DNA of 63,867 bases, counting the filler, from Collodictyon triciliatum (taxonomy: Eukaryota), in NCBI GenBank assembly GCA_043381765.1. It is 9 parts of 9 records of this genome, joined end to end, with 100 filler letters (N's around TTAATTAATTAA, not from the genome) between each part and the next. Parts side by side here need not be neighbours in the genome. Positions count along the whole stretch, not along the records: positions 8,298 to 16,492 come from JBHJMP010003537.1; 8 more parts are not named here. One strand, written 5' to 3'. Made by a program: the position numbers and the translations under genes. Of the stretch, positions 181 through 61,488 are shown piece by piece. Below the pieces are notes generated by a model. It was not told the origin of the DNA, searched no databases, and saw nothing but the letters and a program-made list of their open reading frames with translations. Position 1 is the stretch's first letter. Each line of letters begins with the position of its first letter.

Positions 181-4538
<4,358 letters not shown>

Positions 4539-5926: not shown

Positions 5927-8050
5927 ATGAAGACCTTCAAACCAAGCCCGAGCATATCGGCAATGTCGGAAGAAATTCCCGGAACAAATGCAGAATCAAT
6001 CCCAAAGTCACCTTCGGACATATTCAAAGAAGGTTAATTTATATGCTTTCCATTTTTCCTTTATCCGATTCAAAGCACATGCTTTCCATTTTAAAAAGTG
6101 ATGAAGATATATTGCGTAACAAAGATATTAACAGGTTCTAATTCTGAGAGAGGGACTTTCAAAGCGGATGACTATTGGGATAAAGTGGCGATAAGATATG
6201 CATCCACTTTCGAAGGAAAAGTCACAGAATGCGTCTCTCCCTTGGTGAGATAGCCCTTTTCTCCCCTTTTCTCCATTTGTTTCTTAATTTTACTTTTTCA
6301 CTTTCTACTCGAGGTTACTATTTTTTGAAGCGACATATACTTGATTCATTTTGTTTTTTTCTCATCATTTCCTTACCTATTCAAATGAACGTGCATTCAT
6401 AGCTGGTAGCGTATTCTCAAATCCAATGGAGATGGCTCCCACAAATACTTGACCTTGGATGCGGTTCAGGTGCCTAAAATTTTAATTGTTTTAAATTATC
6501 ATTATTCAACTTTGGCAATCCAATGTGGATTTAGTATTAGCTTAAATAACATCAGTTTTGATTATAGAGGGGAAACATGAAAAGATTATATGAGGAAAAA
6601 ACATATCCAATAACATTTCTCTTAACCTATGAATAAAAATTATTTCATTCTATTAGACCCTCGAATAGAAGTGGTCTAATATCAACTTATGTTTCCTTCG
6701 AATGCCAAAAATATAACGTTTATTCTATTCCATTCCAAAAAGGTTCTTTGACCCATCCGTTGTTGAAGATTCCTTATTCCAGAGTTATATCAAGCGATCT
6801 GGCAAATGAATTCAATAACACTGCACCAACGGAGGGAGAATCTATCGCCTTCCGCAACCATTCTTTTACCAAGATGGAAACCAATGTAATAAATGTGGGA
6901 ACTATATGGTTTTTCTTTAAAAAGAAGATATTATCACGTCCCATCTTTTAACCCTTTCAATGATTTTTTTTCTTGCAACGTAGAAGCTCACTTTTGCGGT
7001 TACGCATACATACGACGCGATTTTTTGCAACATGAGACTTCACTGGTTTGAGAAACCGCAGAAAATCATGCGTGAGATAATGCGCGTGGCGAAACCTGGC
7101 GCAGAGTATTTCTTGAAATATTATTCATATGAAACATCATATCTTTTTGAGAAATCCGAATATTTTCTAAACGCGTTGCAGGGTCTTGATATCGGCTTGG
7201 GATCACCGTGCATATAACTGGTTTCTGGAGACAATATCAGAGGGTGCCTTTCATAACTTTTGCATAAAATAATTCGAATTCAACTATTTCATCAATATAT
7301 GTCCATTAACGACGATTAGATAAGGATGAAATGAGATTAGGTCATTTACGTGTACTTTTATGGCTTAGTCATAGGAGATTATGCAAAGTCTTCCTTCTTT
7401 CCATATCAAGGTGGCATCCTTTCTACGGTTTGTTCGCTGACGGCTTGACAAACAAAAAAAAGAACAAAAAAGAACAAAAAAGAACAAAAAAGAACAAAAA
7501 AAGAACAAAAAAGAACAAAAAAGAACAAAAAAGATCAAACAAAAACAAACGAACAAACAAACAAACAAACGAACAAACAAACGAACAAACAAACAAACAA
7601 ACAAGCAAACAAAAAAAGAACAAACAAGAAACAAATGCAATTATCAAAATATAAAATATGTCTAGAAAGAGTCTATTCGCACGTTCCTGCAGGACTGCGG
7701 ATTTGTAGAGACGCGAATAGCGACAAGAGAAGTCACCCTCACGATGACAACAGAAGAATTTGCTGAATGTGTTTGTAGCTTATACTTTCTTGAATCCCTT
7801 TCAATTATGAATCAGCCTTCCAAATGTTTTGTAACATAATAACATATGGTATTATCTGAACCAGGTATTTATCCAAATATCCCCTATTATCGCTCATCGT
7901 GAAGCTGATATTGACCAGAGAACAAAGTCTGATATTTGCAGTCGCATCATCCAAACGGTAAAGCAGCAGATTAGATTTAGCATATTTAAGATCAATAATC
8001 ATGAAACATCGGTTTAGTTTCATCGCTTTAGTCCTCCAAGACTTTTCTTT
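5927..8050 (+). CDS. Class I SAM-dependent methyltransferase (Methyltransf_11/25-like), multi-exon; ends approximate
   Basis: Exons: DDYWDKVAIRYASTFE..., QILDLGCGSG (SAM motif I), YDAIFCNMRLHWFEKPQKIMREIMRVAKPGAE|VLISAW. Confidence 0.8.
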
Positions 8051-8075
8051 AAGAACGCATCAATACAACCATACG

Positions 8076-8196
<121 letters not shown>

Positions 8197-8197
8197 T

Positions 8198-8297
8198 NNN
8201 NNNNNNNNNNNNNNNNNNNNNNNNNNNNNNNNNNNNNNNNNTTAATTAATTAANNNNNNNNNNNNNNNNNNNNNNNNNNNNNNNNNNNNNNNNNNNN
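8198..8297. other. Artificial contig spacer N44-TTAATTAATTAA-N44 (the 12-mer recurs starting at 16537, 24832, 33124, 41415, 49704, 57991, 61268)
   Basis: An identical six-frame-stop 12-mer flanked by 44 N on each side occurs eight times. The pieces between are about 8.19 kb and decrease in length. Confidence 0.97.
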
Positions 8298-8977
8298 TTG
8301 TTTTTTGTTTTTTGTTTTTTGTTTTTTGTTTTTTGTTTTTTGTTTTTTGTTTTTTGTTTTTTGTTTTTTGTTCTGTAAAAAAAATCCATTCAAGTTGTTA
8401 TGTTGAGATGCAACACTATCATATATATCGCGATGGATCGTTTTGAACACGATTTGCCGCATTCTCTGGCCTTTCGCTGCTTTGGACTTTGTGCTTATCT
8501 TTAATGGTGGCTACAAAGTGAGGGGATCAAAGGATGCGTGTCGCTGTAACTTTCTCGTGCGGTCCGTTCCTTTCTCATCCCACACAACCAGTACTTTTGG
8601 ATGGTGCTGCTCCTTTGCCTTTGTAGTCATTTTTATTTCTTTCGAAAGTGGCAGGTGAAGGGTGGCAGGTGGCGTGTGACAACCACCATAAAATATTTCT
8701 GTCGCTTCATATTGAAATGACTTGCCTTAGCTGGAATTTACATTATGGACTGTATGCCGGAGGATGAAATAAATATTCATCGTTGAATGATATAAATATA
8801 TTTCAGGAAGATGTTTTCCCGGTTTACTTTACCAGTCTCTTCATCAAAAAGAATAGGGATTGGCGGTTTGGTGTGGTGGTTAATAGCCTAGATTTATTTT
8901 ATCGTCTGGATTTCGATACTATAGAGAGGAACAAAGGCAGAAACGCAACGATGATTCAGTAGAACAAAGACAAGGAC

Positions 8978-11900
8978 TCATTCTAATATATGGTCATACA
9001 GCTCAAGTCCACGAATCAGGTCATAGTCTGGATTAGTCGACTCATTCCATAATGGCAGCCTCGTGATTCCACGCGGAGCTCTTTGGATTGTTGAGAATCC
9101 TGCTTTATCTCGGATGCGCAGGCAACTGAGTCCGGTTAATGCAGTAATCTCTGTAGGAAGCTCCCTTATCTAAGGATTTGAAAGGAAAAAAACATCAATT
9201 AATACAATTTTATAAGTTATAAATGCAAATGGCACCAGACTACCAGACCATATTCTCTCGTATATCCAAATGTAAAAGTCCGGTTAAAGATGATATTTCA
9301 GGAGAAAGGAGTGATAACTATGTATGCAATAAAATAATTTATTTCCGCATCGATGTCTGCGTCATTAAAATTTGTAAGTGCAATAATTGCTAAGGTAATG
9401 AATTATTTGGGAAACCATAGAAGGCTCCTTAACTACCACAAACTTTTATTATAAGGGAACATGTATGATAATGATGTTCCAAAAATGAATTCACCTGATC
9501 CAAATGTAGATGTAGTTTCTTCAACCTAGTCAACTGGCTCACTGAATTCGGGATTCTGGATAACCTCATTTCACCGATCCACAATGAGGTTGCGTGCTGA
9601 ATTCCGTGATTGCAAGGTGCGTATCGGATATTATTTTCTTCAATACCGTCTAATGTTTGTAATGCGTCAAATTCCCATAATGCACTACATACTTGCACTT
9701 CGTTGGATGTCAAGTGCTCTTGTATTAGTTGGCAGGCATATGAAATTTCATTCTTTGAAAGTGAGTAATATTCATAAACTTCAGACTGGTCAAGCTTTGA
9801 TATAATATTTCCGTCAAGTTTCAAGCCTTTGACTTTTGGAAGTAATGTATCTGGTATCTTGCCTCGATTTTTTTGCAAATATGTCACTAATTGAAAATGA
9901 CTCATTTCCTTCAAATATCTTTTCGAAGTTTTAGGACTGCTCTCATCAATATCCTTTTTTGATAGCTCTACAAATGTAGAAATTTCGGTAGGTGCTATAT
10001 GATACATCGCAATCAAGGTTTCATCATTCATTCTACTTTTTATATCATCAAATTTAATCCAATCGTGCTGATTAGAAATCTTTTCACTTAATTTTGTAAA
10101 ATTATGGTCACCAAGCCATTCTACAAACTCTCCGAGATGCATGTCAATCAAAGGAGAGTACTTTATTGGTAGTAATTCATTCATTTTTCCAAGAGAGAGG
10201 TAAATTCCAGACATCAAAAGCTCCTCAAGATATTGTAGGACCTGCAACAAACTTGGCCGAAGTTTATAATTTTGCTTCCAGCAAGTTCTGATTAAATGCT
10301 TTAGTTCTTTAGTGACTATGCGAGGTACGAAAGGCCGTAGACCCCTAATAACAAAACTCTGTGTTTGCGTTTCATTTTGAAATGGTTCGATGCCAGAGAA
10401 CATATACCAAAGCAGCATTCCCAAGGCATACACATTACTCGGTTCTCCTCGATGCCCCAAATTAATTTCGTCATCTCCATACATGGTCAATTCATCACAA
10501 TAATGAGGTTTACAAGCAACTTCATTTACCTCTGGTGCTTGCCAATTATTTGTGCCACCTTGCTTCCATTCACCATACCTTGTAGGTAAATTCGAGCTAA
10601 CTTTCTCTACTGCACGCAGGCTCACAATACCAAAATCTACAATTTTTACAATGTCATCGATAACCATGACATTGTCTGCTTTCAAATCTTCATGATAAAG
10701 ATTCCTTGAATGCATGAAAAAAAGCCCCGAGCAAAGTTGTTTTGTGTATGAGATTATCTGCATCAAATTTGGTTTGATGGCTCTTTTCTCTATCATAGTC
10801 TTCATCGATATTCCGGCATTCTCCATGATCATATAAAAATCGTCCTCTTTGCGATATACACCTAGTAATTTGACTATATTTACACACTCGCGGCACTCAT
10901 ATAAATATTTGCTCTCAAGAACAAGAGACCGAATTGTATCAGTTATAGTCTGCTCCATAGTCTTTTGAATGGTTTGTATTTTAACGACGGCATTCATTTT
11001 TTTATGGGTTTGTGTTAAATATACTCGACCATATGCCCCTTTTGCGAGATACTCTACAAGCTCTATCTTTTCATTAGTCCATAAATCGGCATATTGGCCC
11101 AAATTTTGATCAATAGAAGCTAACTCAAGAACATCTTCTGTATTTTGAGGTTTTTTGTTCTTTTTCACTCTCATTACTGAATGAAATCTCTGTGACATAC
11201 CTAAGAGTATATTTAAATATTATTACTTTGTGTGTGTTGTAAAATCTTGATAGTAAGAGGGGAAATATGATTTTATAGTAACTCTGTAAAAAAAATAAAA
11301 AAAAAGAAGAAAAGGACCTTGTTCCAGGTAGATACGTCCTTGTTTAACGGCACTAATCTTAAGCAAGTGGTCTTTTGTACACATTTTCAATTCTGAGTCT
11401 TCCATTTTTACCGAAGCTTTAATGTGGCCCTCCAAATCACTTTGTTGGCAAACGGGGCATTCAAAATGAATTTCTTGAACAAAATTTTGCCGAACGGACG
11501 AGATTTGCTCAAGTAAGGAGGAGAGGACGTCAAACATTCGAATAATTCCTGCGCCTTCATCAAAACCGTTATCGTATCTTCGAATTTTAATGGAAATTGT
11601 AGTTTGGTTAATTTTATAGAAAATTATGAATTCATTTCCGGGATAAAGGTGAATTTGGTTCCTTTCCAGTTCATATTTTGCATTTATGTGTATAAAGGCT
11701 ACATCCCTGAAAAATTGGTCGTCATATTGTACTCCAACCGGTGCTCCTTTTGTTAAACGAAGCGCCTGTATTATTAGTTTACTTTTATCGGAAAGTTGTA
11801 TTTCACCCCCAGCAATCATCTCCGCTGATATTTCTGCGATGCAATTAGACTCTGATTTTTCATTCCACAACGCCTTCAAATTGGCACAGTCCTCCATTAA

Positions 11901-13335
11901 GGAGGGAAATGCGATGCATTCTCTGTTGAATTGAATACCAAGGCCGAAGTGATCAAATATGTGGAATACTGTGCTCAAGACATCTTGATCCAATTGTATA
12001 CTTAATTCCTGTATAATATGGTCTCTTAGTTTGCTCAACAAAATGATCCCGTTTGTACCCTTACCAATTCCCCTGAAACTAAAGACGCAGCGAAATATAT
12101 TTATGAGAAAAAGTGGATCTAAGAATATTATATTCTTTGCACCCTCAAATGTTGAGTACCAAACAATCGAACCAAGATCATGGAGGAATTGTAGAGCACT
12201 TTCACACTCATTTTTGTCCATCTCCAAATGTTTATGAGCAAACATAAATGTTTCTTCAATTTTTTCATACTTGAATACATGCCCCTTAGAATCTAGGTAC
12301 TCCTTCAATCTAATATACACTTTTGGAACATCTCTATTCATATGGTCGAGCTTTATCATCCCTTCGTAAATCACTTTTTTTAGGGCAGACATCTTTGCTC
12401 CACTTTTGTTACTTACTTTTAACTCAGTGCTTATAAAATTGTGGCGAGATTTTTCATCACTTTTTTGATCATTTGCCTTACGAATCTTCTCTATCTCTTG
12501 ATACATCTCTTGGCTACTTAATGGATTTTCACAATCTTCATGAGTCCCAGCAATGATAATCTTTGAGCCAGGTGCAAAGTCATCAAGCATTTTAATCCAG
12601 CGGCCAAGGTTATTCTTTTCTTTATTTTGGTCAAGCCTATAAAGGATTAATACCAAAGCACCCGAGGATAAAAAGAACGGATGTGTTACTTGGAATTCAT
12701 CTTGTCCTCCAAAATCCCATATTTGCATGGATATCTTGGTTTTGAAAAATCCACCCATCATGGATTCGTCAATATCAACATGAGCAATACCATCTGTTTG
12801 CTTCCTCTCTCGGTCGGTTGTATCGTAAAAGAACCAATAATTCTGTTTAATAGATTTAGTAAGAGTTGTTTTTCCAGCTTCCCCTTCTCCAAGTAATAGA
12901 AGTCTCCCCTGAGTCCACTTCACAAGGCCACTCATAGAATTAACCAAAAAATCAAATATGGCCCCGGAACCGTTTGTTATAACATTTTCTGGTATATTCT
13001 TGACAGGATTTCCTAGAATAGTGAGTCCACCTCGCAAGCCTTTAATTTTTGCAAGAAATGGTGGTATGTGGACAATCTATACAATTAAATTGATTTAATT
13101 GACTATTTGGTTTGGTCATCAGGATTTTACAAAAAACATATTTTATTCGTCAACGTCTGTCTTTGAATCAAATAAAGGGAAAAATTCGTGAATATTTGAA
13201 TTTAAAACAAACGTTGTTGTTTGATATATCAAGCTTTTGCAAATTTGCTAGATTTACGATGGACTCGGGAATATGCGAAATCTAGATGCGCATAAATTAA
13301 ACAAAATAATGTATTGTCGTCGTTGTTGTTGTTGC

Positions 13336-13433
<98 letters not shown>

Positions 13434-15025
13434 TTACGACCTTATTCACATTAAATAGTATAGAAACAAGAAATTGATGATTGGTATGATTGGTTGAGAA
13501 TTCTTGTTTATATTCATCAAATTAATTGTCAAGAAACGTATCAATTTAGTTCCATGAAAGAAAAAAGGATGTTTTTTCATTCTAAAATATCTTTCTTTTT
13601 TTTACAAACCTTATTCTGACTGATGTTGAGGTATGTGATCTTTGTTAGCATTGACATATTTGCCGGAAGAACAGATATTTTCATGCTGTAAAAATTAAGC
13701 GATTGAAAATTTATTTGCCTCAAGCTTGGAATCCATTCAGCTGTCATCATCTCAAAATCCTGTTTTCGAGTAGATGTAAAAAAAAATGCGATGGGTAAAT
13801 GAAACTAGAATGGCTTTGGAATAAATGGAAGCTAACCGGAACTTCGTATAGTTGCAGCGCGCGTATGTATTTGTAGTCTCCACTTGAATTTTTCCAGCAT
13901 GGAAGGTTTGAAATACCACGTGGTGCCCTTTTAATGCTGACCTTTTCTCCATTTTCAATGTATAGCTCCTTTAGATTAGTGAGCGCTGTGATTTGTGGTG
14001 GAAGCTCCTCGATCTCAACAAATAGAAAATCAATGTTTGATATTGCATATCATTGTAAATATTAACAAATGCTTGTGTTCAATATACTCATCATCTCATT
14101 TATTCAGATAATCTTACTTTACATCATAATATCAAAGAGTATTAAATAATCCAACAAATACAGTTAAATCACTCAAAATTATTGTATGTGTGATTGTAAA
14201 AAAAAATTGTTTTCACAATGAAATAATTCTTATATGAATTTTCTTTCTTCATTTCTATAAATCATAAGTACACTGCGGAGGCTTAATACTATACCTTGTT
14301 CTGACTGACATCCAAAAAGCTCAGCTTTTCTAGACGGGAAATATTCACCGGCAATGAGGATAAGCTTTTTCCGGTGAAATCAAGGGACTCAAGTTGGATG
14401 TATGCTTCGTTTGGTATCCATCCCGGTTTCATTATTTCATCCTCCTATGTGGAGTTTTTCATTTTATTTTGATTTTTTTGATTTTTTTGATTTTTTTGAT
14501 TTTTTTGATTTTTTTGATTTTTTTGATTTTTTTTTGATTTTTTTTGATTTTTTTGATTTTTTTATTTCAGTCAACATACTGGTTGGTACAGCTGCAGCCT
14601 TCTGATATGCATGTTATCATCATATTCCGTGTTAGTCCAGCATGGAAGACATGTGATACCTTGTGGTGCCCTTTTAATGCTGGTATTACCACCATTTTCG
14701 ATATAGAGCTTCTTTAGGCTCTCTAGGGCTGTGATTTGTGGCGGTAGCTCTTCGATCTGCGCCATCTATTATTAGGATCTATAATTTATCTTGGTTATGA
14801 AATAGTACATACCGGATTTGTATAGATGTATAGTTCGATGAGGCCCGTCAATCTCGATATTTCTGGTGGGACGGCTATCAGATGGTTGCTGCTAATACTG
14901 AGGTACCTGAGACGATTCAAGCGTGATATTTCCGATGGCAACGATGTTAGTTGGTTGTAAGAAAGGCCAAGATATACAAGACTGTTTAAGCTTAATATTT
15001 CTAGCGATAGTATTGATAGTTTGTT
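8978..15025 (-). CDS. Roco protein: LRR - Roc GTPase - COR - protein kinase - two SAM-like domains - C-terminal LRR (multi-exon, 5' end lost in gap)
   Basis: 23-aa LRRs (NQLTSLPSEISRLNRLRYLSISSN). Roc motifs: LLGEGEAGKTTL, QTDGI, IWDFGGQDEFQVTHPFFLS, GTHED, KVSNKSG. COR motif: ALQFLHDLGSIVWY...IFLDPLFLI. Kinase motifs: LAKGAYGRVY, AVVK, HEDLKADN, DFG, WQAPE. Terminal LRR exons end ...LYDHILE* (stop 8978-8980). Confidence 0.92.
13319..13431. repeat. (GTT)n microsatellite in Roco intron
   Basis: Direct reading. It explains the poly-Cys ORF. Confidence 0.95.
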
Positions 15026-15754
15026 NNNNNNNNNNNNNNNNNNNNNNNNNNNNNNNNNNNNNNNNNNNNNNNNNNNNNNNNNNNNNNNNNNNNNNNNNNN
15101 NNNNNNNNNNNNNNNNNNNNNNNNNNNNNNNNNNNNNNNNNNNNNNNNNNNNNNNNNNNNNNNNNNNNNNNNNNNNNNNNNNNNNNNNNNNNNNNNNNNN
15201 NNNNNNNNNNNNNNNNNNNNNNNNNNNNNNNNNNNNNNNNNNNNNNNNNNNNNNNNNNNNNNNNNNNNNNNNNNNNNNNNNNNNNNNNNNNNNNNNNNNN
15301 NNNNNNNNNNNNNNNNNNNNNNNNNNNNNNNNNNNNNNNNNNNNNNNNNNNNNNNNNNNNNNNNNNNNNNNNNNNNNNNNNNNNNNNNNNNNNNNNNNNN
15401 NNNNNNNNNNNNNNNNNNNNNNNNNNNNNNNNNNNNNNNNNNNNNNNNNNNNNNNNNNNNNNNNNNNNNNNNNNNNNNNNNNNNNNNNNNNNNNNNNNNN
15501 NNNNNNNNNNNNNNNNNNNNNNNNNNNNNNNNNNNNNNNNNNNNNNNNNNNNNNNNNNNNNNNNNNNNNNNNNNNNNNNNNNNNNNNNNNNNNNNNNNNN
15601 NNNNNNNNNNNNNNNNNNNNNNNNNNNNNNNNNNNNNNNNNNNNNNNNNNNNNNNNNNNNNNNGTGTGGTCCCATTCAAAAGTGGAAAATATATTAAATT
15701 TCGACCATTTGCATCCCCGATGCCCAATCTGGTAGTGTGGGTCGTTAATTCTAT

Positions 15755-15930
15755 CGTCACCGCACTCAGTATGCGCTTGATGAGATTCATAACCTATTCA
15801 CTTTATGTGATTCAGCTAAAAGGAGCATACAGTATTTCGAATAGAAAACGCGGTGCGCCAGAATCCAGGGTCTCAACACTTTTTTCATAAAGGTTGTGCG
15901 GTGGCGAAGACTGCCAGGTGAGACCCAACA
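15755..15930 (-). ncRNA. Candidate Fanzor omega-RNA scaffold overlapping the nuclease 3' end
   Basis: Perfect 8-bp inverted repeat GGGTCTCA (15868-15875)/TGAGACCC (15919-15926). Inner TGGC/GCCA hairpin (15902-15916). A second 8-bp inverted repeat CACCGCAC (15758-15765)/GTGCGGTG (15896-15903) crosses the first. The position matches where TnpB/Fanzor omega-RNAs are encoded. Confidence 0.45.
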
Positions 15931-16492
15931 GCCTATTTTTTTTTAGAGCGAGGTGTATGCATATTTTGAGGATTAAAGGAACTTTCTTGAGTATATTATT
16001 AGCGCTGTTAAAGTCCCTTGTCAAGAATACACTTTGTTTGCTTTCTGACCAATTGCATTCTTTGCATATGAGACATATATACACCTTTGAATTTCTTTCA
16101 GTGTCATATATTCCAGTTCTTTTTTCGCAATTACAGCACATCTTGAAGGTTCTAAATTCATTTACATTAACTGGTTCAAAACTTTTGGATAATATTTTTC
16201 GTAATCCTCTTCCAATTATTGGCGTAAAATGTTTCATCTGACATTTCCTGCTCCAGTCTCCATACGACAGTACAACATCCTTGCCAAATGTCTTTTCGAT
16301 TCGGTCCATAAACAATCCTTCACTTCTTTTTGTATTGACATACTTTCTCCATACCATCTTTCGAAAAGTTACTTGTTCTTAAAATCTGAAAAGTTCTATC
16401 TGGAATCTTGATTTCATAGATACATATTTCCGAAATTATTCATAATCGACCGTGCATGAATTATGTTTACTCAGTTCTGTCTCTAAATCGAT
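15812..16492 (-). pseudogene. Fanzor (Fanzor1-like, TnpB-derived RuvC nuclease) C-terminal half; 5'-truncated by contig end, with in-frame stops
   Basis: One intronless frame reads IDLETELSKHNSCTVDYE*FRKYVSMK...LFRF*EQVTFRKMVWRKYVNTKRSE...FGKDVVLSYGDWS...MKHFTPIIGRGLRKIL...VNEFRTFKMCCNC...CLICKEC...TRDFNSANNIL. This contains the RuvC-II Glu, a CxxC...CxxC zinc finger and RuvC-III RDxNxAxNI. TAA stops are at 16436-16438 and 16379-16381. Confidence 0.88.
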
Positions 16493-32934: not shown

Positions 32935-34389
32935 ATGCGGCACCTATAGAGCATTCTCTTCAACTTCTGCCGAACTCTTTTAAGAGAAGAAAGGAAAGGA
33001 AAGGAAAGGAAAGGAAAGGAAAGGAAAGGAAAGGAAAGGAAAGGAAAGGAAAGGAAAGGAAAGAAAAGAAAAGAAAAGANNNNNNNNNNNNNNNNNNNNN
33101 NNNNNNNNNNNNNNNNNNNNNNNTTAATTAATTAANNNNNNNNNNNNNNNNNNNNNNNNNNNNNNNNNNNNNNNNNNNNAAAAAAACAAAAAAAAAAAAA
33201 AAAAAAACAAAAAAAACAAAAAAAACAAAAAAAAAAACAAAAAAACAACAAAAAAAACAACAAAAAAAACTGTCACAAGCTTTTCTATTTAACACTTCAA
33301 CACACCTGAAAAAGCTGATATTCCACATAGAAGTCTGAGGCGCCGCCTTTCAAAGATGCACTGCTGTCAATAACGCGTCTCTTCCGTGCGTGGCAGTCTC
33401 CGCGAGAATATCTTTGTGAGTCTCTGTTCAACGCTGCTCTGTTTTGCGCTGCGCAGGCGATCACGAAAGCACGCAAGTGCAGAAGGAAAGAGAATAATAA
33501 AAAAAGAAGCTTTGTACTCCACATTTAGCCTCGCCAATGGTGCCCATATTTTCACAGTGTAGTAGACAATTTGTCACGCCTACTCGCGCACAACACTGGT
33601 TCGAGCCGATTCTGATACACAGCCACAAACATAGCCGAAAACATAGGCAAAGCGGAACAGAAAAGTGAGTTCAATCGTGGGGTGCGGTGCTCCGGTAGGC
33701 CAGTCCTATTCCCGCTGCAAAAAAAAAAAGACCAATTTTTTTTATATAATATGTGCTACATACATTTTTTGACTTTTGCGCTGTGAACCAGTACTACCCG
33801 CGACTTGCAATTGCGTGTTTCTGTTTGGTTAATGGTGTGGTGTGCAATCACTCTACCTAAAAAGGTGGTAATACAAGTCTATGACAGGATACCTGTATTT
33901 CCCTTCGTTTGTGTACCGAAATAATTTGTTTGCCAATCCGAAACTGGGTTGCTTAACCACATAAAATTTTGTTTGGTGATTACGCCTGGATATACCTATA
34001 TCTTGCTTTGACATGACATACAACTTCTGATGCACCAGCTTTAGTAAAGGGAAAGCAAACATTGTGATATGTTAGCCAATAGATACGTGTTTGCAGGCAA
34101 TATAAAACGCATTAAACTTTTGCCGATTCGCTCCCGTTCTTCTAAAAAAAAATCAATACATGGAATGAATAAACGAGCTATTTAAGTAATTGGTTCTTTT
34201 AAAAAAAATGAAATGGAATGTGTACAAAACCAACAATTCAGCGCATAACATTTCGAAAAATGATCATCGACACGATAACAACACAATTTCTTTAATTTAA
34301 CTCATGCAATAGACATGAAGCGAAATTATCTGGAATAATTTTAATTTAAGTTTTTTTTTTTTTTATTGATTCTTTTGCAGCCTTTTTGA

Positions 34390-40777: not shown

Positions 40778-40848
40778 TGCATTGTCCGGGAATCGAACCC
40801 GGGTCGACAGCTTGGAAGGCTATCATGCTGCCACTACACCAACAATGC
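40778..40848 (-). tRNA. tRNA-Gly (anticodon TCC)
   Basis: GCATTGTTGGTGTAGTGGCAGCATGATAGCCTTCCAAGCTGTCGACCCGGGTTCGATTCCCGGACAATGCA. Acceptor stem GCATTGT/ACAATGC, anticodon loop CTTCCAA, T-loop GTTCGATTC, no encoded CCA. Confidence 0.97.
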
Positions 40849-41370: not shown

Positions 41371-41601
41371 NNNNNNNNNNNNNNNNNNNNNNNNNNNNNN
41401 NNNNNNNNNNNNNNTTAATTAATTAANNNNNNNNNNNNNNNNNNNNNNNNNNNNNNNNNNNNNNNNNNNNAAAGAAAAGAAAAGAAAAGAAAAGAAAAGA
41501 AAAGAAAAGAAAAGAAAAGAAAAGAAAAGAAAAGAAAAGAAAAGAAAAGAAAAGAAAAGAAAAGAAAAGAAAAGAAAGGTAAAGAAAAAGACACCAGGCA
41601 C

Positions 41602-49510: not shown

Positions 49511-49924
49511 TGAGAGAGGGAAAAGAGTGGGATTAGAAAGGGGAGAAAGAAGAGAAGAGAAGAGAAGAGAAGAGAAGAGAAGAGAAGAGAAAGAGAAGAG
49601 AAGAGAAGAGAAAGAGAAGAGAAAGAGAAGAGAAAGAGAAGAGAAAGAGAAGAGAAAGANNNNNNNNNNNNNNNNNNNNNNNNNNNNNNNNNNNNNNNNN
49701 NNNTTAATTAATTAANNNNNNNNNNNNNNNNNNNNNNNNNNNNNNNNNNNNNNNNNNNNATCTCTTTCTATCTCTTTCTATCTCTTTCTATCTCTTTCTA
49801 TCTCTTTCTATCTCTTTCTATCTCTTTCTATCTCTTTCTATCTCTTTCTATCTCTTTCCTTCTTTCCATCTCTTGCTACTTTTCTTTATTTTCGATCGCT
49901 AGACCTGAACGTTGACTATTCTAG

Positions 49925-52900
49925 ATGATTGCAAACCTTTTTGCTGCTTTAGCACTGTTTTGCTGTATGAGACTAGCACTTGGGCAATGCACTGTGCCCA
50001 GCGAACAACCATTTGGCCTTGTGCTCAATCCTGACTTATCGATCGCAATTTGTCTTGGATCCACCATCATTCCACAACCTCCAAGCATGGTGGCCTCTGT
50101 GAATCAATGGCTCCCGGAGTACATTAATCCGGATCCAGCCTTCACTAGTGCAAGCAACAACCCAAATCTCGTCTTTACGTCTAAAAGCACTATTCACATG
50201 ACATTCATCACAGAAGGTGCCGGATATCGCAACACTCTCGGCTACTTTGTGTTTGATGCTAATCAAAACATCATTTCCAAGAATATTGTATTTCCGGATG
50301 CATCAGACTCTCCTCCAACCCTGCATACAGGCCAAACGGTGCAAATAGGACCTTTTGCATCTGGACGTCGGGTTGGTTTCTTCTTAATTGGAAACGGATA
50401 CAGCAATTGGTTTTGGGTTACCGATCTTACTAGTATGACGTTCTACTCTATTTGGACGATGAATCCAGACGGCAAGCAACATATCGCTATGTTCACCGAA
50501 AGTACGACCGGAAAAGTGCTAATCGGTTTTGAAGACTTGTACGACCTTGGAGACGGTGATTACAATGATGCTGTTTTTTTGTTACAGTGGACGGTTCCAT
50601 CGACAACAACGAATTTCCGACAACACAACTAGTCACCACCCCCATGAACACAGAAGTTCGGTTTACCCTCCAACTGACTGCTGGCAATGCTAAGACGATT
50701 AATTTTAACTCTTTGCCTTCTCTAGGAGTTCTATACCAAGTCAACACAGATGGCACAAAAGGATCCGCTATCACCTCGACTTCTTCAATAGTAACAAACC
50801 CGAATTCTTACTTAATATTTGCACCAGCAACCAACACTAATGGGCAGCCGTATACAAGTTTCTCAGTCACCGAGACACTTGTTAACGAACAAGTTATTCA
50901 TGTTATTGTGCGTGTAGACGTCCTGCCTAATGAGATATATGCTCCAACACCATTACCTACTTTTGTTACTACAACCGCAGCCAAGCTAACGCTCATTCAG
51001 TTATCTGGGATAGATAAGAAAAATCTTAACCTGTTTGCTACGATTACTACTTTGCCCAGTCAAGGAGTTCTCTTTCAGTACAATTCTGGTTCGGCTGGAG
51101 ACCAAATTACCATAAAGGATACCCCCATTAGTGATCCTATCAATAGGGTATTTTACCAAAGTAATGACCAGTACATCATATCTCCAGTCACAGACTTTTT
51201 TGATTTTAAAATGACCAACAACCTTATGATTTCTGAAAACGCCCGAGTTGCTATCAGTGTAAATTTGAGACCCAACAGTCCTCCGACATCCCTCAATATC
51301 ACTGTTTTCACTGAGCCAAATTCTTACTGCAATGTTGACATCGCGGTAACAGATTCTGAGAGAGATATTGTGACATTGAGCATTATAACAATCCCAGGTA
51401 ATGGAAAAATATTTTCAACGTATGATGGCACCTCTCGTGGGACCCAGATTACTGTACCAGGCTCCATAATCCCTCCTTTAAATCCGTCATTGTGGAGAAT
51501 CATCGCTGCCCCGAATAAAGATTCTAGCGGAGAAGCCATAATGATATTCCAATTTGGCGTGAAGGATTATATTTCATCCAGTACATACACTGCCACCATC
51601 AACGTAAATTTTGTCAACCACCCACCCGTTTCGTCGCCCGTGTCACTTACAATTGAAGAGAGCAGTTCATCAAACTCGATTGCCGAAGCCTTGTGGAGTG
51701 TCCATGCCAACTGCGACACCGATAACGATATGTCTACTTTGTCATTGACCATTCTTACTGTCCCTGTTTTGGGAAATCTTGTAGATAGTATCAGAACTAT
51801 TATCACTTCATCCTCACTCCCTAGGACCTTTGCATACGGTTCTCAAGTATCATATACTCCTCCTCATATCGGATACGGGACTGGATTTGCAAGTTTCAAT
51901 TTTCATATTATCGACAATAGAAACGGTATTTCTGCTGTTAACACGTTTACCATTAACGTCAACCATGTCAACCATGCACCCACCGTCAATATTTTGTCAT
52001 CATATAGCACATATATGAATACAATTAAATCAATCATCCTCATCGCCGATGACTTGGATGTGGGAGACTCGCTATTCTTTTCAGTTACATCACTTCCAAC
52101 CAAAACCGGATCCTTTCTTACTATGGGAAATGTAACGATTTCAAACAGTGATAAATTCTCACTTCCATCCAGCGGTGTTGTTTTGAACTATACACCAGCT
52201 CCGAATCAGTTCTATACCGATCAAATAACAATTCAAGTTGCGGACAGTCACGGTCAATCCGAAATTAAACAGGTGCCTATAATTTTTAGTTATGTTAACA
52301 TCGCACCAGTGGCCCTCTCTCAAATAGTAACTATCGAATCAAATGATCAAGCTCACATATCCCTCCTTGGTGCTGATGCCAATATACCAGCCGAGCCTTT
52401 GACGTATACCATCCAATCTCTTCCCTCCAATGGCTCCCTCTTTTTTTCTGGAGAGAAAATTCTTAGTGTTCCATTTCATCTGGGACTTTCTTCTCTGGTA
52501 ACTTTTTTCAACAACCTTAACCAGTATGAAGACCTTGATACGTCATTTACGTTCACAGTCAGTGATGGGATGGTAGACTCATTAGAGGCAAAAGTCTCTG
52601 TGAAAGGAATCCGTGCTAATCAAAGACCCATAGTTGAAGCTCCGTCAACAGTCATTATTCATATGAACGAGACAGTGCATATTACCGTTTACGCGCATGA
52701 TGTTGACAAGGAAGACGTTCTCACTTATGAAATCACAACCCTTCCTATGCACTCCTCACAGCCATTTAGGACTATTGACACCACCATCATTGCCAACACA
52801 AAGTATCCTCTGACTTCCAATGATATCACGTTAATATACACCCCAACACCAAACAAGCTGTATGAGGACCACTTTACGGTTCAGATAAGCGATGGAAAAG

Positions 52901-54191
52901 CCTTTGAGGCAAGGAATATCTCAATCACGGTTACCCAAACTCATAAATCTGTCAGTCTATTCAAACTAAAACAAGTATCTAAATCGGAATACATGGGACA
53001 TCAAGTTTCAATCAAGAATGGAACAGCGATTATTTCTGTTCCTTTTTGTGTGAATCCTTCAGTTTCGTGTGACGGCGGTTACCTATTGGTGTACAAACTT
53101 GTCAATGGTTTTTGGAGTTTTTTCAAGAAAATCACAAATCCTTACTACAAAAGAGATATCAAATTCGGCTTCCAGATTCACCTCAATGATGAATATCTTA
53201 TGACCTCTGCACCAGATTCTATCTATGTCGACGGGTCTGCGGGTATAGTTACAATCTATAAGTGGGACTCTGTTGGGAACAAATTCTCAAAGTTTGTGTC
53301 TTTGAGACCCAAGGGATTGACCAGCCGTTTTGGGTTTGGAAAGTGCATATCAAGCTTTAATAATGTCATAGCAGTTGGTTCTCCAAAACATGACACGCAA
53401 AAAGTACCAAAATCTGGGAGAGTATACATTTTCAAGAGAGATACAGTTGGAAACTGGGAGGCCCTCCCCAAATTTATAAACTCACCGCTTCAAATCGAAA
53501 ACGAGTTTTTCGGGTCGTCAGTATCACTCCAAAGTGAATCCTTGTTTGCAGCCTCCAACAACCCTGTCAATCCTGCCCACCGAGCTATCTACATCATTCG
53601 ATTAGTGGGAAAGAGATGGCGCTTGTCTCAGCGAATCGCTGATCAATCAAAGCTTGGCTTTGGGTGGAAAGTCAAGTTTTTCAATCAGATACTGTTTGTA
53701 TCTGCCATCAATGACGGCACCATAGAACCCAACGCTGGCTCAATCACCACGCTCAATGTTAATGAAAATGGTCAGTATGTTGAAACGGCAACCATCCGGC
53801 CGAGTCTAGGCACTGTGGATGAATACTTTGGCTTTAGCTTTGATGTCCATGACGCGACGCTCGTTGTTGGTTCACAGCCGTGCTATAGAAGCTCGAAATG
53901 CAACTTGAAAGGTTCTCTAAAGAAAAAAGTTATCTTTTCAAATTTCAAAAAAATATAATGATGCGTAATTATAATGTAAACCACAAAATAACTCATGTAG
54001 GGTCTGCTTACGAGTTTACCATGCTCGGTGGGGAATGGATACAAACAAACCGTCACACTTTGGGAGTTGCCGATGGCTCAGACGGCTTTGGTTATGACGT
54101 GGCTGTGGAGGCAAACACGCTCATCGTCTCAGCTCCGTTTGACTCTACAAAGGGGCCCCTGAAAGGTGCAGTCTACTTCATCCAAAAGTGA
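49925..54191 (+). CDS. Large secreted protein: signal peptide - DUF4114-like domain - tandem cadherin/Ig-like repeats - FG-GAP-type beta-propeller; one frameshift and one intron
   Basis: Signal peptide MIANLFAALALFCCMRLALG. Motifs TFITEGAGYRNTLGYF and IGFEDL...DGDYNDAVF. About 100-aa repeats start NHPP/NHAP/NIAP/NQRP with DxDxD and FxFxVxD. Blades FGFQI/FGKCI/FGSSV/FGFSF/FGYDV. ORFs 49925-50632 and 50587-53958 join at a T7 run. Intron at about 53911-54000. Confidence 0.8.
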
Positions 54192-57946: not shown

Positions 57947-58353
57947 NNNNNNNNNNNNNNNNNNNNNNNNNNNNNNNNNNNNNNNNNNNNTTAATTAATT
58001 AANNNNNNNNNNNNNNNNNNNNNNNNNNNNNNNNNNNNNNNNNNNNTTGTTTTTTTGTTTTTTGTTTTTTGTTTTTTTGTTTTTTGTTTTTTTGTTTTTT
58101 GTTTAGTTTCGGTTGGAAAGTATTGCCATATATAAAGTACCGTATATAATCTAGAATTTTATTTGTGCGTTTTGTAACAAAGAAATGCGTTATCTCACTG
58201 TTTGCGTGTGATTACACTTCGGAGAACAAATTGGCTTTGGAACTGGCGCAGTAAGTAATGACGTGAGAAGTCAGTCCTGCCCTTTCCTGACGGCGCTAAT
58301 AAAACATAAGTAAGAACCCTTAAAACACAGGAAGAATCGGAACTAACGAAACG

Positions 58354-60222: not shown

Positions 60223-61488
60223 ACTGGTTATAACAGTTATTCTACTCCCTCTATCACATTGTAAATAGTGCCCGTAATTTTTATTTCTGTGCTTTCAGAT
60301 TTCGGGATTATCATTTGCGATGCATGCAAGCAAAACAATTATAAAGGAAGGTGTAAATAACCAGTAAAAAACACAAAAGTCAATAGATACAATCCTTTGC
60401 GGTCTGTGTATCGTGGTATTGTTAATTATTTATTTATTTTATTTTATTTAATCTCCTATTGCCCATTTTTACGGCTTTCAGGAATTAGTCACAGGAAGCA
60501 AATGGAAAGTAGAACTTTATCACCATTGTTTTCCGCAAGTGGTATGTATACGCGGGGACTTGGGAACAGCAAATCTGTCTTCATCGGCGATATTCAGTGA
60601 ATGTGCAAATTTGTGGAATTATTTACATTTATAGGCAATGGACAGATACTAGTTTGCGACAGTAGGCAATATCCATATCAACACTGATTATGTTTTCCTA
60701 AATCAGCCTTGGATCCTAAGTGCGTTTCGTTTGCCTTTGATTTGCTCCGTCTTTTTTCCTCTCGCAAAGGCCAAACACGTCACGTCAAAACCGTACGCCC
60801 GAAGGCGAATCCATCCAAATATCCACATGGCTTCTCTGCAAGCAACACCCTTCTTTTCTTTTCTTTTTTCTTTTTTTTTTCTTGATCGTTCAAAATGATT
60901 CATTTCAACGGCCTTGTTGGTTTTGTCTCGTTTAAAGTCGTGCCCTCGGTTGTTGTCGATTCCTTCATGACTTTTGCTCTCAGGCTAAACTTTTTTTTTG
61001 TTTTATGTTTTTTGTTTTTTGTTTTATGTTTTATGTTTTTTGTTTTTTGTTTTTTGTTTTATGTTTTTTGTTTTATGTTTTTTGTTTTATGTTTTTTGTT
61101 TTATGTTTTATGTTTTATGTTTTATGTTTTATGTTTTATGTTTTTTGTTTTTTGTTTTTTGTTTTTTGTTTTATGTTTTTTGTTTTATGTTTTTTGTTTT
61201 ATGTTTTTTGTTTTATGTTTTATNNNNNNNNNNNNNNNNNNNNNNNNNNNNNNNNNNNNNNNNNNNNTTAATTAATTAANNNNNNNNNNNNNNNNNNNNN
61301 NNNNNNNNNNNNNNNNNNNNNNNTATATACTCTTTTTTTATAAAAAAAAAAAAAAAAATTGTAAAAAAATTAAAAAAAATACATTTTATTAAAAAAAAAA
61401 AAATAATTTTGTTGTTTTTTTTTTTTTTTTTTTACAATATATTGGATAAATGATATGGAATTCACTTATCCTTCTTGAATAATTGCAG

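Follow-up and report, generated by a model that had tools for sequence, protein, structure and literature searches.

A truncated copy of a predicted Fanzor1 nuclease gene with two in-frame stop codons at a scaffold end of the Collodictyon triciliatum assembly

Reading frame and family assignment

The window analysed here is the whole stretch of 63,867 nucleotides (filler included) from the draft genome of the protist Collodictyon triciliatum (GCA_043381765.1), and its subject is a fragment of a gene for a predicted Fanzor1 nuclease, a eukaryotic RNA-guided endonuclease of the TnpB type, on the minus strand at 15812-16492. The window is a chain of scaffolds of about 8.2 kb in descending length, joined by linkers of 44 N, TTAATTAATTAA and 44 N (8198-8297, 16493-16592, 24788-24887, 33080-33179, 41371-41470, 49660-49759, 57947-58046 and 61224-61323). 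Since these are separate scaffolds, features lying across a linker from one another are not genome neighbours. The fragment is found on the last 829 bases (15664-16492) of the scaffold at 8298-16492, and this 829-base contig is separated from the remainder of the scaffold by a gap of 638 N.

From 16492 to 15812 on the minus strand, a single frame of 226 codons could be read without any frameshift, ending in a TGA (15812-15814). It contains an ATG-started open reading frame (ORF) of 181 amino acids (15812-16357) and, as had been described in the initial annotation, continues upstream for another 45 codons, up to 16492, across two in-frame stops, both TAA (16436-16438 and 16379-16381). At 16492 the DNA abuts the 44 N and the linker, i.e. 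the scaffold end. The N-terminal part of the protein, including RuvC-I, is absent because the scaffold ends and not the gene, which agrees with the earlier view that RuvC-I was removed by the contig end. What is left begins just past RuvC-I and extends to the natural C-terminus, without the 5' part of the gene. All motifs quoted in the initial annotation were present in the translation, namely ELSKHNSCTVD (16445-16477), FRKMVWRKY (16340-16366), GDWS (16250-16261), VNEFRT (16148-16165), CCNC (16127-16138), CLICKEC (16055-16075) and TRDFNSANNIL (15989-16021), all on the minus strand.

Comparison of the read-through translation with the PDB by phmmer revealed matches to PpFz1 of Parasitella (E 4.3e-7), GtFz1 of Guillardia (E 0.002) and SpuFz1 of Spizellomyces (E 0.016), and these solved Fanzor1 chains were the sole PDB sequences at E<=10. 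Four full-length relatives of 635-648 amino acids were recovered from a collection of 5.8 billion proteins. The closest full-length relative, P0001 (648 amino acids), which came from a search of this collection restricted to longer proteins, shared 63% identity over 85% of the fragment (residues 444-635, E 9.3e-69) and itself matched the solved trio at E 2e-28, 3e-24 and 4e-23. A profile built from five relatives reached the same three chains at E 4.6e-43, 1e-42 and 8.6e-37, and nothing else in the PDB at E<=0.001. Within the span of the fragment 86 columns were invariant across the five relatives; the copy keeps 73 of these, including the Glu, the Asp, the four Cys and GDWS. The zinc ribbon model of TnpB and Cas12f in Pfam (PF07282, OrfB_Zn_ribbon) was matched weakly (E 0.48; 11.1 bits, below the cut-off of 26.3), and a search of the fragment against NCBIfam gave no matches. 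The precomputed label of P0001-P0004, PF26935, had no entry in the Pfam copy searched.

Fanzor2 and prokaryotic TnpB (ApmFz2, ISDra2 TnpB) have in common with this family the RuvC and zinc-finger core and a guide RNA at the transposon right end. They differ in that none of their solved chains matched the fragment at E<=10 or the profile of its relatives at E<=0.001, and the Pfam TnpB zinc-ribbon model stayed below its cut-off; across PDB, Pfam and NCBIfam the fragment showed no closer similarity to Fanzor2 or TnpB than to Fanzor1. The assignment to a Fanzor1-type TnpB homologue, for which a significant match to TnpB/Fanzor profiles had been named as the check, is thus supported by the fragment, by P0001 and by the profile, with E values from 4.3e-7 for the fragment down to 4.6e-43 for the profile.

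The Gly of GDWS (16259-16261), the Fanzor-type substitute for the canonical RuvC-II Glu, aligns with GDWS/GNWS of SpuFz1 and PpFz1 and equals G500 of SPu-1-1p. The putative alternative catalytic Glu of RuvC-II (E in VNEFRT, 16157-16159) follows 34 residues past it, and its NEF aligns with D-E-Y of SpuFz1. Because of this Gly and Glu at 34 residues' distance, the fragment is assigned to the rearranged RuvC-II, zinc finger and RuvC-III of Fanzor1, and is predicted to be the C-terminal third of such a nuclease gene. G500 and E536, the pair to which the two residues correspond, are described as "extremely conserved" in Fanzor1 (Bao & Jurka, PMC3627910), and Jiang et al. (PMC10530073) describe how Gly or Pro takes the place of the canonical RuvC-II Glu, for which another Glu further along compensates. 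The earlier statements that GDWS is typical of Fanzor1 and that the RuvC-II/zinc-finger/RuvC-III layout is present were therefore correct, the latter in substance.

The putative RuvC-III catalytic Asp (D of TRDFNSA, 16013-16015) belongs to an R-D motif; it keeps the invariant trDlns column of the relatives and aligns with D606 of SpuFz1. In the profile alignment, residues 777, 935 and 1000 of the SpuFz1 chain fall on the D of DPGK, the E of NEFRTS and the D of TRD. With a single offset of 394 these become D383, E541 and D606, the active-site metal ligands given by Saito et al. (PMC10432273). The RuvC-I Asp lies in DPGK in all five relatives, and in the copy the site would lie beyond the scaffold end at 16492, some 80 codons upstream of it. 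A C4 zinc finger of the NUC/TNB domain (CCNC ... CLICKEC, 16055-16138) could be assigned from the alignment and the weak PF07282 match.

Lesions and truncation of the copy

Alignment with the five full-length relatives confirmed that the two TAAs occupy positions where Lys and Tyr had been expected. The first (16436-16438) stands in a column that is Lys in all five (K462 of P0001) and is one base from AAA, while the second (16379-16381) stands in a column that is Tyr in all five (Y481 of P0001) and is one base from a Tyr codon. An altered genetic code in which TAA is read as a residue was rejected, because the two TAAs would require different residues and because host ORFs run for 596, 617 and 1129 codons without a stop.

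Public sequencing runs offered a comparison for these codons. Seven runs contain 4-14% of the sampled words, none reaching half, and four of them were aligned to the 829 bases at 80% likeness. Three of the four are water metagenomes (4, 3 and 1 contigs aligned), and the fourth, X4, is from one named organism (107 contigs, without cover at 15804-15887). None of the seven runs is listed as RNA, and X4 is only guessed to be so. In every other covering public contig base 16379 reads A on the plus strand, which gives TAT (Tyr). This T>A difference was counted in one contig of X1 (its entire depth), one of X3 and 11 of X4 (208.1 of 208.1 depth). The TAA at 16379-16381 is private to the copy in this assembly, or an error. 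The X3 contig is 98% alike over 16364-16492 with two differing letters, and only one T>A was tallied for it among the differences listed, from which we infer that it probably retains the first TAA.

The [TS]-[TS] pair ahead of the C4 zinc finger is described as strictly conserved in Fanzor by Bao & Jurka (PMC3627910). In the [TS]-[TS]-x-x-C4 motif of the copy the four Cys are kept, and the pair reads T-F against T-S in all five relatives, with a Phe (TTC, 16145-16147, minus strand) at the second position, where each of the five has Ser. This is taken as a lesion of the copy and not as evidence against membership in Fanzor1. Altogether 13 changes at conserved columns were counted in the copy, including the two stops and the Ser to Phe exchange; P0001 has 9 lineage-specific changes at columns shared by the copy and the other four relatives. 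The terminal branch of the copy in the phylogenetic tree described below was 0.5, against 0.17 for P0001. The damage is light, with no frameshift and with the Glu, the Asp and the four Cys intact. When the initial annotation called this copy decayed, it was right as far as two nonsense codons and a hit at a conserved Ser are concerned, but the lack of frameshifts and the absence of one stop from all other covering contigs speak for a milder state.

As assembled, the copy has no residues upstream of about 444, so that the REC/WED part and the RuvC-I Asp are missing. Judged from its sequence it cannot, in this form, act as an RNA-guided nuclease, because the 5' part is missing, two TAAs interrupt the frame, a conserved Ser is replaced by Phe and no guide scaffold or terminal repeat is recognisable. 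These lesions have to be weighed against the alternative that the Fanzor1 gene at this locus is in essence intact and may be active. The TAAs would then be low-coverage draft errors or strain-specific and the 5' loss an assembly break. The Tyr codon at 16379 in all covering contigs of three runs, the 226 codons without a frameshift, the retained catalytic Glu, Asp and zinc finger, and a number of conserved-column changes near that of intact P0001 (13 versus 9) would all agree with such a gene. So would a contig of run X2 that extends beyond 16485: hand translation of 30 letters showed that the frame continues past the scaffold end with residues like those of P0001. Nevertheless, two independent nonsense codons and a Ser to Phe exchange at a strictly conserved site all fall within 100 codons, the 98%-alike contig of X3 probably keeps the first TAA, as far as the differences listed allow, and neither guide-RNA scaffold nor terminal repeat could be recognised downstream. 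An intact gene is for these reasons considered unlikely.

The short ORF at 15812-16357 raises another alternative, namely a domesticated protein of 181 amino acids that would use its zinc finger and half a RuvC domain in a new, non-nuclease role. The ORF is open and begins just past the second TAA, as such a protein would require. It would, however, be without the RuvC-I Asp and without every RNA- or DNA-binding N-terminal domain, no protein of exactly this sequence was present in a collection of 15 billion, and the clear homology that continues upstream through the stops is the signature of a pseudogene and not of a new start. Domestication is scarcely credible on this evidence, and the ORF is better regarded as part of the interrupted Fanzor1 frame.

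Elements of the relatives and copies elsewhere

For this family the following mode of action would be expected. DNA would be cut by a RuvC active site (Asp, relocated Glu and Asp) together with the C4 zinc finger, and a guide RNA made by transcription of the element's 3' end would select the target. The gene would be carried in a short DNA transposon bounded by terminal inverted repeats (TIRs), which may be mobilised by a transposase of the IS630/Tc1-mariner type encoded within the element or elsewhere.

The relatives carry such features. A metagenome scan gave 71 loci and IMG/VR another 5, most with intact ORFs of 608-676 amino acids. Many of the loci lie on AT-rich contigs of 40-227 kb that are 79-89% coding, and the 10 neighbour ORFs scanned include MutS, photolyase, asparagine synthase, SNF2 helicase and FNIP and leucine-rich repeats; one IMG/VR record is named as a giant-virus metagenome-assembled genome (MAG). 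From their gene density, AT content and neighbours the large contigs are taken as giant-virus-like. A right-end motif of 22 bases was found in 52 of 54 loci with complete ORFs, ending 1-168 bases past the stop (mostly 63-89), and the sequences diverge immediately beyond it. An inverted copy of the motif is present upstream in 34 of the 50 loci having at least 300 upstream bases, which delimits elements of about 2.4 kb. Longer elements of 2.8-3.3 kb (L001, L002) hold a DDE_3 (IS630/Tc1-mariner-type) transposase or its remnant on the opposite strand within the same ends, and homologues of this transposase were found in the loci of 10 more relatives (12 locus ids, L002 and L003 being the same sequence).

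A conserved structure is formed by the last 125-165 bases or so of the element, which extend into the end of the ORF. Over 33 sequences it comprises 41 pairs with 90.7% of cells paired, as scored on the very sequences from which it was derived, and in 20 pairs both partners have changed; a score as high was reached by none of 500 shuffles, and pairing in slid controls was 38-50%. Guide RNAs of TnpB and Fanzor end at the transposon right end and read into the flank (PMC10432273, PMC10530073), and the covarying 3' structure of the relatives shows the same arrangement. In L004 (230-2170) the Fanzor1 ORF spans the entire 3' RNA region, its stop lying at the last base of the right-end motif, and the long C-terminal tail of the Collodictyon copy seems to do likewise.

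Two further observations concern these relatives. Dozens of giant-virus-like freshwater contigs (L009-L063, L072-L074) each carry an intact TIR-bounded Fanzor1 element of about 2.4 kb, in which some 450 conserved non-coding bases precede the ORF and a covarying RNA structure of about 125-165 bases ends exactly at the right end. L001 is a 10-kb metagenome contig with two pairs of transposase and nuclease (1019-3838 and 6590-9910). The first consists of a DDE_3 transposase (1019-2035, minus strand) and a gene for a TnpB-like protein of 573 amino acids with a Cas12f-type TNB domain (2117-3838, plus strand), and the second of a DDE_3 transposase (6607-7638, minus strand) and a Fanzor1 gene (7960-9864, plus strand).

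At the Collodictyon locus, the 148 bases 3' of the stop (15664-15811) reach the 638-N gap and hold no recognisable transposon right end or guide-RNA scaffold. The right-end motif of the relatives was not found downstream of the copy; at up to 3 mismatches the window gave one match, inside the coding part, with 0.46 expected by chance. An nhmmer profile of the six closest right ends found nothing at the locus, the covariance model of the 3' structure (R1) found nothing in 15664-16492 (best window matches elsewhere, E 0.1-0.25), and the fold of the 134 bases before the stop was no better than shuffles (z -0.01). A MAFFT pairing of the 3' tail with the six closest right ends, which needed a gap of 46 columns, was dropped in view of the nhmmer, covariance and fold results. 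Similarity to DDE_3 was found nowhere in the window, and the left end of the element lies beyond the scaffold end at 16492. The copy retains nothing detectable of the element beyond its protein-coding part.

A phylogenetic tree of 83 C-terminal parts was constructed by a quick method with SH-aLRT support alone, from 58 of 161 proteins (up to P0070, at least 560 amino acids, minus three near-duplicates), 24 of 76 loci and the fragment itself. The copy was sister to P0001 (support 100), and the pair joined (84) a clade from short contigs of 2.6-10 kb (L001, L002, L004, L005, L007, L008, P0002, P0004, P0008, P0009). The large-contig loci L019-L063 grouped with one another (98) as part of another clade (96), and L072 and L074, the two IMG/VR contigs sampled, were placed in a third. 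The only host gene on the scaffold encodes a leucine-rich repeat (LRR)-Roc-COR-kinase (ROCO/LRRK-like) protein in several long exons (9429-15025), with Pkinase, Roc, COR-A and LRR repeats. It lies on the same strand as the fragment, and the Atlas search with its Roc-COR ORF gave ROCO families from many phyla.

These results bear on a possible origin from a giant virus, by which the fragment would be a mis-scaffolded contaminant contig or an integrated viral segment. Many relatives (36-43% identity) lie on the large gene-dense contigs next to genes such as MutS and photolyase, the five IMG/VR matches include the named giant-virus MAG, the linkage to the host gene spans an N gap only, and the contigs of the nearest clade are too short to tell whether they are viral. 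Viral spread of Fanzors has also been proposed, and virus-integrated copies described, by Bao & Jurka (PMC3627910). Against this, the copy groups with P0001 and next with the short-contig clade and not with the large-contig clade, the GC content of the 829-base contig equals that of the host scaffold (0.367 versus 0.355 for the rest), and 107 contigs of 80-100% likeness in the run of one named organism indicate an old genomic repeat family and not a single virus. A viral origin is accordingly regarded as very unlikely.

The contigs of X4 are distributed over the whole range of likeness to the locus, 17 at 99% or more, 17 at 95-99%, 40 at 90-95% and 33 below 90%, and the 107 of them constitute a multi-copy family. 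One contig has an in-frame skip of 138 bases (16088 to 16227), and another fuses the RuvC-I region straight to 16484. These skipped forms would be deletion derivatives or, less likely, spliced transcripts if X4 is RNA. Taken together, the contigs point to a repeat family that is old, has been copied until recently and has given rise to deletion derivatives. The flank exists elsewhere without the adjoining Fanzor fragment, since an X4 contig matches 15664-15786 at about 89% likeness and then diverges.

A second copy was not found in the window, where tBLASTn with the fragment and 158 collected proteins matched this locus alone. Three further fragments were obtained from a search among proteins of similar length. 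P0161, an NCBI-sourced protein of 136 amino acids from a 582-base contig, shows 68% identity over 35% of the query. It carries the copy's own variants in the zinc-finger area, while its N-terminal half is unrelated and scrambled. It probably represents one more decayed copy, from a fragmented public genome.

A bolder view is that the source protist has a young, still-active, high-copy family of Fanzor1 nucleases of about 640 amino acids, in a clade held in common with freshwater giant viruses, and that the copy described here was recently inactivated or mis-sequenced. It is favoured by the 17 of 107 contigs with at least 99% likeness, by the intact catalytic residues and by the lack of one stop in other contigs, yet it is held to be rather unlikely. 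If true, virus and host would exchange a mariner-borne RNA-guided nuclease.

In our judgement the fragment is probably the 3' third of a single Fanzor1 element belonging to a multi-copy family in the draft genome of an amoeba-like eukaryote. The copy may once have had a mariner-type setting, and it would be without function in the living organism. Several points weigh against this interpretation. The fragment is joined to the remainder of the scaffold solely across the 638-N gap, and its physical linkage to the ROCO gene therefore rests on scaffolding. No public run has more than 14% of the sampled words, and the codon at 16379-16381, being TAT in all other covering contigs, may reflect a base-calling error or a private change. 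The conserved-column changes are not clearly excessive (13, against 9 in P0001) and frameshifts are absent over 226 codons, so that beyond the stops there is no clear sign of relaxed selection. Finally, the mariner-type context is known from relatives of at most about 50% identity, and none of it is visible in the window.

Surroundings, known systems and meaning

Between the Fanzor1 fragment and the gap, an ATG-started frame of 42 codons runs from 15790 to 15665 on the minus strand and enters the 638 N toward the ROCO gene; it has no significant paralogue within the window. On another scaffold, an open frame of 1129 codons (50569-53958, plus strand) encodes a SibA-like protein with SibA-like Ig, Big_9, cadherin-like and FG-GAP parts, which is an integrin- or Sib-like surface protein. 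Sib-like surface proteins are known from dictyostelid amoebae, and dictyostelid genomes also carry ROCO kinases. The ROCO and SibA-like genes of the window agree with an amoeba-like protist as host. A tRNA gene (40778-40848, minus strand) was the sole Rfam match in the window at the gathering threshold. Long microsatellites of the (CAAA)n and (GAAAAA)n types, together with a run that would encode about 35 consecutive Asn or Thr, were noted at 16594-16688, 17280-17380 and 13229-13521.

Among the known systems, SpuFz1/SPu-1 of Spizellomyces punctatus (PDB 8GKH) belongs to the same family and has the same order of motifs as the Collodictyon copy, and both have the C4 zinc finger and the RD motif. 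The relocated Glu lies 36 residues from the Gly of GDWS in SpuFz1 and 34 in the copy. SPu-1 measures 2.1 kb with TIRs of 33 bp (PMC3627910), and the relatives of the copy are single-ORF, TIR-bounded elements of about 2.4 kb. The direct similarity is weak (E 0.016), and the copy differs in being truncated and interrupted by stops, with no guide-RNA scaffold found.

The Mariner/Tc1-borne Fanzor1 elements, PGv-1 of Phaeocystis globosa virus and PUl-1/PUl-4 of Pythium, are described by Bao & Jurka (PMC3627910) and are likened here by description only. Similar to these, the nearest relatives with DNA (L001, L002) pair a DDE_3 transposase or its remnant with Fanzor1 within inverted ends, shorter relatives keep the ends only, and many copies lie in giant-virus-like contigs. 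In contrast to them, no TA target duplications could be seen at those ends of the relatives that were read, and none of the transposase or end context survives at 15812-16492. The dictyostelid DFa and PPa families, also likened by description only, likewise come from amoeboid protist genomes; Table 1 of Bao & Jurka 2013 (PMC3627910) gives 4 Fanzor1 families in D. fasciculatum and 7 in P. pallidum.

The possibility of an undescribed Fanzor family, raised in the initial annotation, did not hold. In a library of 1.84 billion proteins the five-relative profile reached 5574 representative clusters at E<=1e-3 and 1155 at E<=1e-30, besides the three solved Fanzor1. Fanzor1 of Amoebozoa, other protists and giant viruses is already published (PMC3627910, PMC10432273, PMC10530073), as are mariner-borne Fanzor1 elements, including viral ones (PMC3627910). 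The hope is unsupported because the protein falls within a very large, solved and published family whose element type is also in print. As a member of a well-known family the copy is ordinary, decayed and cut short by the assembly.

Taken alone it is of little weight: the family to which it adds one decayed partial copy is already known from thousands of sequences of eukaryotes and viruses, and publications on Fanzor1 in amoebae and giant viruses go back to 2013. Its value is that of a pointer. With many copies in the genome and in a public run, intact nucleases of about 640 amino acids may be recoverable, and the terminal repeat of the relatives together with their covarying 3' RNA would define the guide scaffold of this clade.

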